A stretch of 5,360 bases of DNA from Escherichia coli (GTDB lineage Bacteria; Pseudomonadota; Gammaproteobacteria; Enterobacterales; Enterobacteriaceae). The notes under the pieces were generated by a model. It was not told the DNA's origin, ran no database searches, and saw only the letters and a list, made by a program, of their open reading frames with translations. Made by a program: the position numbers and the translations under genes. Below are positions 341 through 5,360 of this stretch, one piece after another; position 1 is the stretch's first letter; every line of letters starts with the position of its first letter. Location: NCBI RefSeq assembly GCF_003334315.1, contig NZ_QOWR01000095.1. One strand, given 5' to 3'.

Positions 341-1699
341 TCAGGAATCTGGCATGTTGTTGTTTTTCACAAACAACGTCAGCTTATCGCCTGGTTGCAG
401 ATTCGCAGTGTCGCTGTTCCAGCGCATCACATCTTTGATGTTCACGCCGTGGCGTTTAGCAATGCTTGAAAGCGAATCGCCTTTGCGCACACGATACGTA
501 ATGCTATCGCTGTTGTTTGCCAGTCGCTGTGCGCTACTGCCTGCACCAATCGTCAAACTTTGGCCTGGCTTCAGCTTAGATCCGCGCAGTTTGTTCCACT
601 GCTGCAAATCTTTGGTGCTTACGCCGAGACGTGAAGCGATACTTGAAAGCGTGTCGCCAGAGCGTACGGTGTAAACACGGCTGTTAAGCGGCGTATTGTC
701 GGCAACCAGCGTCGACTGTACAGCAGCAATTTCGCCTGAAGCCAGAGATTCACGCAGTTGATCTGCATGCTTCTTTGGCACCATCACGTACTGCGGGCCA
801 CTTGCGCCCAGCGTGGAGCCTTTTACGCCAGCGTTGAATGTCTTCAGCTTGCTGACGGAAATCCCCGCCATATCTGCTACCTTCGCCATTTCAACCGGGC
901 TGCTCAGGTGCACACGCGCCAGAGCACGGCTTTCATCGGTCGTTGGCAGACGTACGCCATAACGCTTGCTGTTTTTGAGAATATCACTCAATGCCAGCAT
1001 TTTAGGCACGTACTGCTTCGTTTCCTGCGGCAACGGTAACGACCAGAAGTCCGTGGATTTCCCACGCGCTTTGTTGGTTTTAATTGCCTTCATGACCCGA
1101 CCTTCGCCGCTGTTATAAGCCGCTACGGTCAGAAGCCAGTCGCCGTCAAACATTTTGTTCAGACGCTGCATCATATTCAGCGCGGCAGTTGTTGAAGCAA
1201 CAACATCGCGACGCGCGTCATAATTGCGGGTCTGTTTCAAACCATAATTGCGCCCCGTGCTCGGAATGATCTGCCAGATGCCTGCGGCATTGGCGCCAGA
1301 CGTTGCGTGAGGATCAAAAGCGCTCTCCACTATGGGTAGTAGTACCAGTTCCATAGGCATGTTACGTTTTTTAACTTGCCCTGCTATCCAGTACATATAC
1401 GGCTCTGCCCGTAAAGTTACATCGTGGAGATAGCTCTTATTGCGTAAATATTTCTGTTTCTGTTCGCGAATCCGGTCATTTTCCGGAATTCCCATCTTTA
1501 GCTCGTCGCCAATGAAAGCCCACAAGTCACCATCTGGCGCGATAGACGTCCCATCGTCCATCCATCGTGCCTGACTTGTAAACTTTGCTGCTTCCCCTTG
1601 ACCAGCTGCAGAAAGGCTCTGTGCGTGCTGTTGAACGTTGCCGGTACTCTGGCAACCCACGAGCAGGACAGAGGCGAGTAATATCGCTTTTGCCTTCAT
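341..1699 (-). CDS. mltD: Membrane-bound lytic murein transglycosylase D (lipoprotein with a lytic transglycosylase domain and two C-terminal LysM repeats)
   Basis: 452-aa ORF. N-terminus MKAKAILLASVLLVGC has a signal peptide and LVGC lipobox. The lytic transglycosylase catalytic region is present (LPIVESAFDP ... AAYNSGEG). Two LysM-like repeats occur at the C-terminus (YTVRSGDTLSSIASRLGV..., YRVRKGDSLSSIAKRHGV...). Length and sequence match E. coli MltD as I recall it. Confidence 0.95.
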   Translation of the reverse strand: MKAKAILLASVLLVGCQSTGNVQQHAQSLSAAGQGEAAKFTSQARWMDDGTSIAPDGDLWAFIGDELKMGIPENDRIREQKQKYLRNKSYLHDVTLRAEPYMYWIAGQVKKRNMPMELVLLPIVESAFDPHATSGANAAGIWQIIPSTGRNYGLKQTRNYDARRDVVASTTAALNMMQRLNKMFDGDWLLTVAAYNSGEGRVMKAIKTNKARGKSTDFWSLPLPQETKQYVPKMLALSDILKNSKRYGVRLPTTDESRALARVHLSSPVEMAKVADMAGISVSKLKTFNAGVKGSTLGASGPQYVMVPKKHADQLRESLASGEIAAVQSTLVADNTPLNSRVYTVRSGDTLSSIASRLGVSTKDLQQWNKLRGSKLKPGQSLTIGAGSSAQRLANNSDSITYRVRKGDSLSSIAKRHGVNIKDVMRWNSDTANLQPGDKLTLFVKNNNMPDS

Positions 1700-1770: not shown

Positions 1771-2529
<759 letters not shown>

Positions 2530-2559
2530 TTACCTCTCAGTGTGAAACGGAAGGTTGTG

Positions 2560-3282
2560 ATGAAACCGGCAAGAGTCCCTCAAACTGTCGTGGCTCCTGA
2601 TTGCTGGGGCGATTTGCCCTGGGGAAAGCTTTATCGCAAGGCGCTGGAGCGCCAGCTCAACCCGTGGTTCACTAAAATGTATGGTTTTCATCTGCTTAAG
2701 ATTGGCAATTTAAGCGCAGAAATCAATTGCGAAGCGTGCGCGGTTTCTCATCAAGTGAATGTTTCTGCGCAAGGAATGCCCGTCCAGGTACAGGCGGACC
2801 CACTTCATCTTCCTTTTGCCGATAAATCCGTTGATGTTTGTCTACTGGCACATACATTGCCGTGGTGCACCGATCCGCATCGTTTATTGCGTGAAGCCGA
2901 TCGGGTATTGATTGATGATGGCTGGCTGGTCATTAGTGGCTTCAATCCCATCAGTTTTATGGGATTACGCAAACTTGTGCCGGTATTGCGCAAAACCTCG
3001 CCCTATAACAGCCGGATGTTTACTCTGATGCGGCAGCTGGACTGGCTCTCTTTGTTGAATTTTGAAGTGCTACACGCCAGCCGTTTCCACGTTCTCCCGT
3101 GGAACAAACACGGAGGAAAACTATTGAATGCGCATATTCCTGCGCTTGGTTGCTTACAACTTATTGTTGCCCGGAAACGGACTATTCCTTTAACGCTAAA
3201 TCCGATGAAACAGAGTAAAAACAAGCCACGAATTCGCCAGGCGGTTGGAGCCACCCGGCAATGTCGTAAACCACAGGCTTAA
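2560..3282 (+). CDS. yafS: Putative SAM-dependent methyltransferase YafS
   Basis: ORF in frame 1 ending at TAA 3280-3282. The preferred start is ATG 2560 (MKPARVP...), preceded by GGAAGG at 2549-2554 with a 5-nt spacer; this gives 240 aa. The track's upstream GTG at 2542 would add 6 residues but has no better RBS. The product call follows the usual annotation of this conserved gene; I did not verify motifs beyond a general methyltransferase-like composition. Confidence 0.85.
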
Positions 3283-3746
3283 ACTTCAACTTGGTAGCCT
3301 GTATCTTCCAGTGTGGGATTCATCGCCGCGGCACGAGCCAGTTCATCACAGCGTTCGTTTTCCGGGTGTCCGGCATGGCCTTTAACCCATTCCCATTTGA
3401 TTTGATGCTGCCCCAATGCAGCATCAAGACGTTGCCAGAGATCGACATTTTTTACTGGTTTTTTGTCTGCGGTTTTCCAGCCACGTTTTTTCCAGTTATG
3501 GATCCACTGGGTGATACCCTGGCGGACATACTGGCTGTCGGTACTCAAAATGACTTCGCAATGTTCTTTTAACGCCTCCAGCGCGACAATAGCGGCCATC
3601 AACTCCATACGGTTGTTGGTGGTGCGGGTGTAGCCAGCGCTAAAGGTTTTCTCGCGTCCGCGATAGCGTAAAATAGCGCCGTAACCCCCAGGTCCTGGAT
3701 TGCCCAGACACGAACCATCGGTGAAAATTTCTACCTGTTTAAGCAT
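3279..3746 (-). CDS. rnhA: Ribonuclease HI
   Basis: 155-aa product [21 protein letters not shown]...[21 protein letters not shown] with the RNase H carboxylate residues in their expected contexts ([25 protein letters not shown]). The start is ATG at 3744-3746 (minus strand) preceded by AGGAAG. The 192-aa ORF in the track is an in-frame upstream extension lacking an RBS. Confidence 0.95.
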
Positions 3747-3810
3747 CTCTGGTAGACTTCCTGTAATTGAATCGAACTGTAAAACGACAAGTCTGACATA
3801 AATGACCGCT
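3747..3810. promoter_or_regulatory. Divergent rnhA/dnaQ intergenic control region
   Basis: 64-bp AT-rich gap between back-to-back start codons (rnhA 3746 on minus, dnaQ 3811 on plus). It contains -35/-10-like hexamers (TTGAAT 3767-3772, ATAAAT 3798-3803), but I could not pair them into a confident promoter. Divergent overlapping promoters are established for this gene pair in E. coli. Confidence 0.5.
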
Positions 3811-4542
3811 ATGAGCACTGCAATTACACGCCAGATCGTTCTCGATACCGAAACCACCGGTATGAACCAGATTGGTGCGCACTATGAAGGCCACAAGATC
3901 ATTGAGATTGGTGCCGTTGAAGTGGTGAACCGTCGCCTGACGGGCAATAACTTCCATGTTTATCTCAAACCCGATCGGCTGGTGGATCCGGAAGCCTTTG
4001 GCGTACATGGTATTGCCGATGAATTTTTGCTCGATAAGCCCACGTTTGCCGAAGTAGCCGATGAGTTCATGGACTATATTCGCGGCGCGGAGTTGGTGAT
4101 CCATAACGCAGCGTTCGATATCGGCTTTATGGACTACGAGTTTTCGTTGCTTAAGCGCGATATTCCGAAGACCAATACTTTCTGTAAGGTCACCGATAGC
4201 CTTGCGGTGGCGAGGAAAATGTTTCCCGGTAAGCGCAACAGCCTCGATGCGTTATGTGCTCGCTACGAAATAGATAACAGTAAACGAACGCTGCACGGGG
4301 CATTACTCGATGCCCAGATCCTTGCGGAAGTTTATCTGGCGATGACCGGTGGTCAAACGTCGATGGCTTTTGCGATGGAAGGAGAGACACAACAGCAACA
4401 AGGTGAAGCAACAATTCAGCGCATTGTACGTCAGGCAAGTAAGTTACGCGTTGTTTTTGCGACAGATGAAGAGATTGCAGCTCATGAAGCCCGTCTCGAT
4501 CTGGTGCAGAAGAAAGGCGGAAGTTGCCTCTGGCGAGCATAA
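3811..4542 (+). CDS. dnaQ: DNA polymerase III epsilon subunit (3'-5' proofreading exonuclease)
   Basis: 243-aa product [17 protein letters not shown]... with the DEDDh exonuclease motifs (Exo I DTETTG, Exo II HNAAFD, Exo [17 protein letters not shown]) and the C-terminal QTSMAF beta-clamp-binding motif. An alternative in-frame ATG at 3802 would add 3 residues; 3811 corresponds to the canonical protein. Confidence 0.95.
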
Positions 4543-4674: not shown

Positions 4675-4751
4675 GGAGCGGTAGTTCAGTCGGTTAGAAT
4701 ACCTGCCTGTCACGCAGGGGGTCGCGGGTTCGAGTCCCGTCCGTTCCGCCA
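4675..4751 (+). tRNA. aspV: tRNA-Asp (anticodon GUC), 77 nt with encoded CCA
   Basis: GGAGCGGTAGTTCAGTCGGTTAGAATACCTGCCTGTCACGCAGGGGGTCGCGGGTTCGAGTCCCGTCCGTTCCGCCA. Acceptor stem GGAGCGG/CCGTTCC, GTC anticodon in a CCTGTCACG loop, and a T-arm GGTTCGAGTCC. The locus name comes from its position immediately downstream of dnaQ. Confidence 0.97.
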
Positions 4752-4781
4752 CTATTCACTCATGAAAATGAGTTCAGAGAG

Positions 4782-4811
4782 CCGCAAGATTTTTAATTTT
4801 GCGGTTTTTTT
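4782..4811 (+). terminator. Intrinsic terminator downstream of tRNA-Asp
   Basis: Stem CCGCAA (4782-4787) / TTGCGG (4799-4804) with an AT-rich loop, followed by a T7 run (4805-4811). Confidence 0.6.
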
Positions 4812-4907: not shown

Positions 4908-4930
4908 GGTAATGACTCCAACTTATTGAT
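4908..4930. repeat. IS1 terminal inverted repeat (right end)
   Basis: GGTAATGACTCCAACTTATTGAT at the element boundary, the characteristic ~23-bp IS1 end. The partner repeat lies outside the window. Confidence 0.85.
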
Positions 4931-5360
4931 AGTGTTTTATGTTCAGATAATGCCCGATGACTTTGTCATGCAGCTCCACCGATTTTGAGAACGACAGCGA
5001 CTTCCGTCCCAGCCGTGCCAGGTGCTGCCTCAGATTCAGGTTATGCCGCTCAATTCGCTGCGTATATCGCTTGCTGATTACGTGCAGCTTTCCCTTCAGG
5101 CGGGATTCATACAGCGGCCAGCCATCCGTCATCCATATCACCACGTCAAAGGGTGACAGCAGGCTCATAAGACGCCCCAGCGTCGCCATAGTGCGTTCAC
5201 CGAATACGTGCGCAACAACCGTCTTCCGGAGACTGTCATACGCGTAAAACAGCCAGCGCTGGCGCGATTTAGCCCCGACATAGCCCCACTGTTCGTCCAT
5301 TTCCGCGCAGACGATGACGTCACTGCCCGGCTGTATGCGCGAGGTTACCGACTGCGGCCT
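4923..5360 (-). CDS. insB: IS1 transposase InsB (ORF B of the InsAB' frameshift fusion), 5'-truncated by the window edge
   Basis: The minus-strand frame is open from the window end (5360) to TAA at 4923-4925 and encodes ...[145 protein letters not shown]. The track's 125-aa ORF (4923-5300) starts at an internal Met. Confidence 0.93.

Follow-up and report, generated by a model that had tools for sequence, protein, structure and literature searches.

The convergent genes yafS and rnhA of Escherichia coli share an ordinary four-nucleotide stop-stop overlap, with a probable rnhA terminator inside yafS

The convergent genes yafS and rnhA of Escherichia coli run into each other at their stop codons. 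The overlap is not unusual and its letters are not special in themselves: it is already annotated, the class to which it belongs was described in 2007, and the pair has already been catalogued as an excludon. We consider it fairly probable that this is an ordinary 4-nt tail-to-tail overlap, a by-product of genome compaction rather than a dedicated regulatory device, with terminators located inside the partner gene. According to this reading, yafS, rnhA and dnaQ, now part of the gloB-yafS-rnhA-dnaQ region, would have formed a packed co-directional operon in which the rnhA ORF alone was then flipped in place, leaving zero spacer beside yafS and a short divergent promoter region beside dnaQ. The rnhA transcripts would end at a hairpin and U-tract formed by the final ~20 yafS codons, and the yafS transcript past its stop would be untranslated antisense RNA, ended by Rho within rnhA. 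As a discovery the overlap matters little; the useful outcome is a correction, namely that zero intergenic space does not imply zero terminator. The additions made here, an rnhA terminator embedded at the codon level and an origin by inversion, are modest and partly inferential.

The window, i.e. the whole stretch of 5360 nt analysed, is the part of the E. coli chromosome that surrounds rnhA. It comprises mltD (341-1699, minus strand), gloB (1771-2526, minus strand), yafS (2560-3282, plus strand), rnhA (3279-3746, minus strand), dnaQ for DNA polymerase III epsilon (3811-4542, plus strand, co-directional with yafS; ORF list and RefSeq), tRNA-Asp (4675-4748, plus strand), which was the sole match in an Rfam search of the window, and the terminal part of an IS1 copy (4908-5360, reaching the window edge) with insB on the minus strand. 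The 240-aa product of yafS is a class I SAM-dependent methyltransferase, as indicated by the ORF list, RefSeq, Pfam (Methyltransf_11 in the orthologues) and SAM binding, and the 155-aa product of rnhA is ribonuclease HI (ORF list, RefSeq and Pfam, with RNase_H in the orthologues). Purified YafS binds SAM with a Kd of 0.68 uM, and neither knockout nor overexpression of yafS produced a growth phenotype (PMC12096079). The yafS-rnhA stretch is present in 5424 of the 5426 complete E. coli genomes, at 95-100% identity. Both yafS and rnhA are genuine protein-coding genes.

Both coding sequences contain the tetranucleotide TTAA at 3279-3282, which was read directly. The plus strand runs cag gct TAA act, and the TAA at 3280-3282 is the yafS stop, closing an ORF of 240 aa (start codon ATG at 2560) or of 246 aa (GTG at 2542). 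The TAA stop of rnhA is the reverse complement of tta at 3279-3281, read from 3281 down to 3279; it closes the 155-aa frame that begins with the ATG at 3746-3744 and has the C-terminal sequence GYQVEV. The two stop codons share positions 3280-3281. An identical geometry is found in the RefSeq/PGAP annotation of DH5alpha, where the yafS locus occupies 2521-3243 (plus strand) and rnhA 3240-3707 (minus strand). The initial annotation had described the stops as overlapping within TTAA and the genes as having no intergenic DNA between them, and both statements hold, the ORFs and the RefSeq overlap being the same. It had also named a different stop position for either gene as a ground for abandoning its claim; both stops agree with RefSeq and with the tails of the orthologues.

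Genuine genes on opposite strands together with a TTAA-type tetranucleotide place the junction among the 4-nt convergent stop-stop overlaps of Lillo & Krakauer 2007 (PMC2174442), which have the same geometry, with opposite-strand stops sharing two bases in TTAA. The lengths of convergent overlaps in prokaryotes jump at exactly 4 nt, with the spellings TTAA, CTAA, CTAG and TTAG, and E. coli has 58 convergent overlaps (PMC2174442). Nothing essential separates yafS-rnhA from this class; the spelling of its tetranucleotide shifts between genera at constant geometry, and it would add a history traceable to the inversion of rnhA. The same work argues that rho-independent terminators would then fall within coding sequence. 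The assertion that the junction leaves no room for terminators therefore does not follow, since the terminators of convergent overlaps sit within the CDS of the partner (PMC2174442).

When both strands of the window were scanned with relaxed settings, the top-ranking terminator-like signal was a candidate intrinsic terminator of rnhA inside yafS. It comprises a minus-strand hairpin (3268->3227; folding, shuffles and recoding), which begins 10 nt after the rnhA stop, and a U-tract UUGUUUUU (3224->3217, minus strand; read directly) located 2 nt past the hairpin. The hairpin RNA is UACGACAUUGCCGGGUGG-CUCCAA-CCGCCUGGCGAAUUCGUG, followed by GC and then by the U-tract, in which 7 of 8 residues are U. 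The inner stem has 11 bp (3261-3251 with 3244-3234), the loop 6 nt (3250-3245) and the outer stem 5 bp. The minus-strand hairpin has a dG of -24.0 kcal/mol (z = -4.84), and none of 200 shuffles matched this stability; read on the plus strand, this DNA folds far more weakly (-15.4 kcal/mol, z = -1.82) because four G.U pairs become C.A mismatches. The hairpin outranks both the bidirectional terminator at 298-326 and the one that follows tRNA-Asp at 4777-4809, and in dinucleotide shuffles hits at or below -20 kcal/mol are expected at 0.08 per 10.7 kb. A simple consensus terminator scan returned none near the junction, a false negative, since the stem is interrupted.

The element has the attributes of an intrinsic terminator, namely a stable G+C-rich stem-loop, an adjoining U-rich tract and a position just downstream of the rnhA stop. 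Thus, rnhA probably has its own intrinsic terminator within the terminal part of yafS, for which the support is strongest in Escherichia, and the initial description of this junction as having no terminator is probably wrong on the rnhA side. The 3' end of the rnhA mRNA is predicted near the U-tract, with a 3' UTR of roughly 60 nt. The supplements of Adams 2021 and TERMITe 2025 contain no rnhA or yafS entries for RNA 3' ends. A bidirectional terminator at this site was considered and rejected: on the plus strand the hairpin precedes the yafS stop and is not followed by a U-tract.

The U-tract is the reverse complement of the yafS codons for Lys-Asn-Lys (AAA AAC AAG), and three rare codons, CGA, GGA and CGG, occur in the hairpin segment of yafS. 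In a recoding test, which was run after the hairpin had already been noticed, the YafS tail peptide was kept fixed, and only 0.07% of 3000 synonymous versions reached the native stability of the minus strand; the fold of the plus strand was unremarkable (25% with usage weights, 14% with uniform weights). Usage weights and uniform weights gave the same result. As judged by this synonymous recoding, the codon choice of yafS appears to serve the antisense structure.

It is rather unlikely that the hairpin is an accident of the conserved YafS peptide and that Rho, or a collision, ends rnhA transcription deeper in yafS. This explanation draws on the conservation of VGATRQ even in loci that have no hairpin, on a minus-strand C>G stretch at ~2980-2900 that could load Rho, and on the results of the covariation and polymorphism analyses. 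In 14 enteric sequences, covariation did not reach significance: 86.2% of cells were paired compared with 83.7% in shuffles, the covariation score was reached by 55 of 500 shuffles, and three pairs had double changes, no better than in shuffles. Polymorphism in the hairpin segment is not below that of neighbouring yafS among ~5400 E. coli genomes, the identical segment being found in 3167 genomes as compared with 3695 for the neighbouring yafS segment. However, an accident of the peptide is difficult to reconcile with the recoding result, which was obtained with that peptide fixed and is confined to the rnhA-sense strand, with the strand specificity given by the four G.U pairs and the placement of the U-tract so close to the stem, or with the low chance expectation for an equally strong signal.

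The candidate rnhA terminator is best preserved in Escherichia. The inner stem is intact in all eight distinct Escherichia sequences, the changes being located in the loop or retaining the pairing through wobbles. T-rich tails occur at the matching position in other enterics, where the homologous hairpin is weaker: about -18 kcal/mol in Klebsiella and a metagenomic relative, -12 to -15 in Lelliottia, and -11 to -13 in Salmonella. The hairpin is absent in Kosakonia- and Enterobacter-like loci, and the Kosakonia-like ones keep VGATRQ by means of other codons. The hairpin is therefore not a conserved requirement across enterics.

Terminators embedded in a coding sequence are known from other convergent pairs, in which the Rho-independent hairpin and U-tract of one gene likewise lie inside the neighbour. 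Among the 58 convergent overlaps of E. coli, an embedded terminator is predicted for one gene in 19 and for both in 2 (PMC2174442), and TransTermHP 'overlapping terminators' are reported in 146 of 165 excludons (PMC12288877). Compared with these cases, yafS-rnhA adds direct evidence from a test of synonymous codons. The window offers a second comparison, the hairpin at 298-326, which is a classical bidirectional terminator and likewise serves a convergent junction. At the mltD junction a spacer of 47 nt holds a symmetric hairpin that has A- and T-tracts on its two sides, whereas the yafS/rnhA junction is spacer-less and its hairpin is one-directional, with a one-sided U-tract and four G.U pairs. 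The 298-326 hairpin has an 11-bp stem (AAAGGCACCGG...CCGGTGCCTTT) and is situated between the stop of a plus-strand ORF at 293 (yafE remnant) and the mltD end at 341.

The end of the yafS transcript is of a different kind. No plus-strand terminator-like structure was found before or near the yafS stop, and the sole plus-strand hairpin with a U-tract found between 3283 and 3810 was a weak one (3620-3642); the 145 nt downstream of the yafS stop fold no better than shuffles (z = +0.88). A composition scan of the plus strand revealed an untranslated C>G stretch at 3323-3402 (C 31-32%, G 21-23%), which is a candidate region for Rho loading. It is likely that yafS lacks an intrinsic terminator, and Rho acting within antisense rnhA would be the most probable way for its transcript to end.

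Folding of the plus strand also yielded a perfect 10-bp palindromic hairpin (TTGATGCTGC/GCAGCATCAA) at 3402-3427, with a 6-nt loop and without a U-tract (dG -15.5, z = -5.4); it lies within rnhA, 120 nt beyond the yafS stop. Protective stem-loops occur at the steady-state 3' ends of Rho-terminated transcripts (PMC6061677), and by analogy it is possible that this hairpin protects the 3' end of a Rho-terminated yafS mRNA. Most enteric loci have a hairpin at the homologous place, and the palindrome folds on both strands (z about -5). As a selected element it received marginal support: the recoding test gave 3%, and the potential to form the hairpin is partly inherent in the RNase HI peptide LDAALGQHQ, of which it may simply be a consequence.

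Transcripts that overlap in this manner invite comparison with excludons, a concept that reportedly comes from work on Listeria. The convergent excludons of ExcludonFinder likewise consist of opposite-strand neighbours with overlapping transcripts (PMC12288877), and yafS-rnhA appears in Table 1 of that work as one of 165 convergent excludons of MG1655, detected in at least 50% of 58 RNA-seq samples. Excludons were delimited there by coverage that, outside the CDS, stays above 50% of the mean for the gene. As the CDSs of yafS and rnhA already overlap, this criterion is satisfied almost automatically; the call therefore shows neither long read-through nor linked or anticorrelated expression.

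The initial annotation had held that each transcript must extend into the other gene as antisense RNA. This agrees with the lack of a plus-strand terminator in the case of yafS, and it was overstated for rnhA, the antisense stretch of which would be limited by the candidate terminator to about 60 nt of yafS. With yafS transcribed through 3282 and rnhA probably to about 3218, the potential sense/antisense duplex would probably measure at least about 65 nt; given the embedded rnhA terminator, the obligatory overlap may amount to only about this length, which would distinguish the pair from other excludons. Regulatory coupling of yafS and rnhA through interference or duplex formation, which the excludon catalogue takes as its premise, is possible but unproven.

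A functional convergent excludon, with no terminators, long mutual read-through and reciprocal coupling via RNAP collision and/or RNase III, appears improbable. In its favour, the CDS overlap is real, the plus strand has no terminator after yafS, the pair is listed as described above, tight packing is conserved across Enterobacteriaceae, a duplex of the indicated length could form even with the rnhA terminator in place, and head-on RNAP collisions have been documented as a termination route at convergent pairs (bioRxiv 10.1101/2022.10.23.513370). However, a strong candidate terminator lies 10-60 nt past the rnhA stop, and the listing criterion is near-automatic for overlapping CDSs. Moreover, the overlap varies from 0 to 53 nt between genera, yafS is dispensable in that its knockout and overexpression have no growth phenotype, and one E. 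coli strain carries a yafS interrupted by an IS element, all of which argue against a tuned device. The growth result gives no information on rnhA levels.

An extended version of this idea combines selection on the codons of the Escherichia YafS tail as an rnhA terminator with read-through from yafS that would run antisense across rnhA and in the sense direction into dnaQ, thereby tying the level of RNase HI to that of the proofreading subunit of Pol III; it is considerably less probable still. If it were true, the junction would be dual-coded, as a cryptic noncontiguous operon or excludon. The layout yafS(+) rnhA(-) dnaQ(+), derived from a co-directional operon, would fit the noncontiguous operons, whose co-transcribed genes have a gene of the opposite strand between them, but yafS-rnhA-dnaQ is not among the three E. 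coli cases given by ExcludonFinder, and rnhA-dnaQ is absent from its 16 divergent excludons (PMC12288877).

The ordinary tail-to-tail overlap that we favour was traced in 25 Enterobacteriaceae loci. The 4-nt overlap is found in 18 of them, the other seven having overlaps of 0, 10, 41, 41, 47, 53 and 53 nt, and an intergenic spacer between yafS and rnhA was found in none. The tetranucleotide is spelt TTAA in Escherichia, Kosakonia and some Enterobacter, CTAA in Salmonella, and TTAG in Klebsiella, the metagenomic relative (L022) and Lelliottia WAP21; in one Lelliottia the stops abut (TGATCA) with a 0-nt overlap. Tight tail-to-tail packing is thus conserved among enterics and the exact stop positions drift between genera. 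Conservation of the proteins stops at VGATRQ in YafS and at GYQ in RNase HI, and the tips beyond these motifs vary in sequence and length, so the overlap sits in variable and apparently unconstrained C-terminal tips of both proteins. The chance is negligible that the overlap is an annotation artefact in which one stop is not the true protein end. Nothing was found in favour of such an artefact, the ambiguity of the yafS start (GTG 2542 or ATG 2560) leaving the stop untouched; both frames close unambiguously at these codons, the lengths and tails of the orthologues are conserved, RefSeq agrees, and the 155 aa of the rnhA product are the well-known length of RNase HI. The artefact was rejected on the agreement of ORFs, RefSeq and orthologue tails.

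The overlap appears to stem from an in-place inversion within a closely packed operon. The order mltD(-) | yafS-like(+) rnhA(+) dnaQ(+), with overlapping or abutting, tightly packed genes, is seen in five non-enteric Gammaproteobacteria loci (L019, L020, L025, L026 and L027), which include two Thioalkalivibrio, a Halothiobacillaceae MAG and Ectothiorhodospira mobilis. In T. denitrificans the TGA stop of the methyltransferase gene is overlapped by the GTG start of rnhA (GTGGCTGA), and the other outgroup loci have overlaps of 8 nt and 4 nt or a gap of 23 nt. In all 25 enteric loci rnhA alone is on the opposite strand, and the divergent rnhA/dnaQ region is short, 53-64 bp among enterics. From this arrangement we infer, as the simplest reading, that in an enterobacterial ancestor an in-place inversion affected only the rnhA ORF of a co-directional yafS-rnhA-dnaQ operon; the polarity is based on five outgroup loci from a narrow part of Gammaproteobacteria, and neither it nor the node is firmly set. 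Such an inversion would account for both the missing spacer on the yafS side and the short divergent region between rnhA and dnaQ, which in the window is the 64-bp spacer at 3747-3810, the other breakpoint side of the putative event. Inverted repeats flanking rnhA were searched for as relics of the inversion and none were found. The locus would provide a clean natural case of how an operon accommodates the in-place inversion of a single gene. In the outgroup loci gloB does not separate mltD from the methyltransferase gene.

The embedded terminator has a practical implication. The standard yafS deletion of the Keio design is said to leave only the last few codons of the gene. A deletion of this type would take away the probable rnhA terminator, with a possible effect on the rnhA mRNA; phenotypes assigned to yafS should therefore be read with caution.

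Several further features of the window were observed. The start codons of gloB and yafS are divergent and separated by 33 nt (2527-2559), so that at least one promoter must lie inside the opposite gene; this spacing has been remarked upon (PMC3412212), and ExcludonFinder reports a divergent excludon 'gloB-ykfO' here (PMC12288877). All Enterobacteriaceae have a basic C-terminal motif in YafS, ARKRT(I/V)PLTLNP...K...R..VGATRQ (residues ~200-234; 3160-3261 of the window), which is retained even where the nucleotide sequence differs. In E. coli 13TMH22 (L002 791-2851), yafS is split by ISVsa5, an element of the IS4 family; the 3' remnant of yafS still terminates 4 nt inside rnhA, and rnhA is intact. 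Thus, yafS is dispensable in at least one clinical isolate. On the other side of dnaQ, the IS1 end (GGTAATGACTCCAACTTATTGATAGTG) begins 160 nt past tRNA-Asp. The two lie this close together in only 78 of the 5426 complete E. coli genomes, and among the matches shown the tRNA-Asp/IS1 region aligns as two separate segments; the precise junction may therefore be rare or strain-specific.
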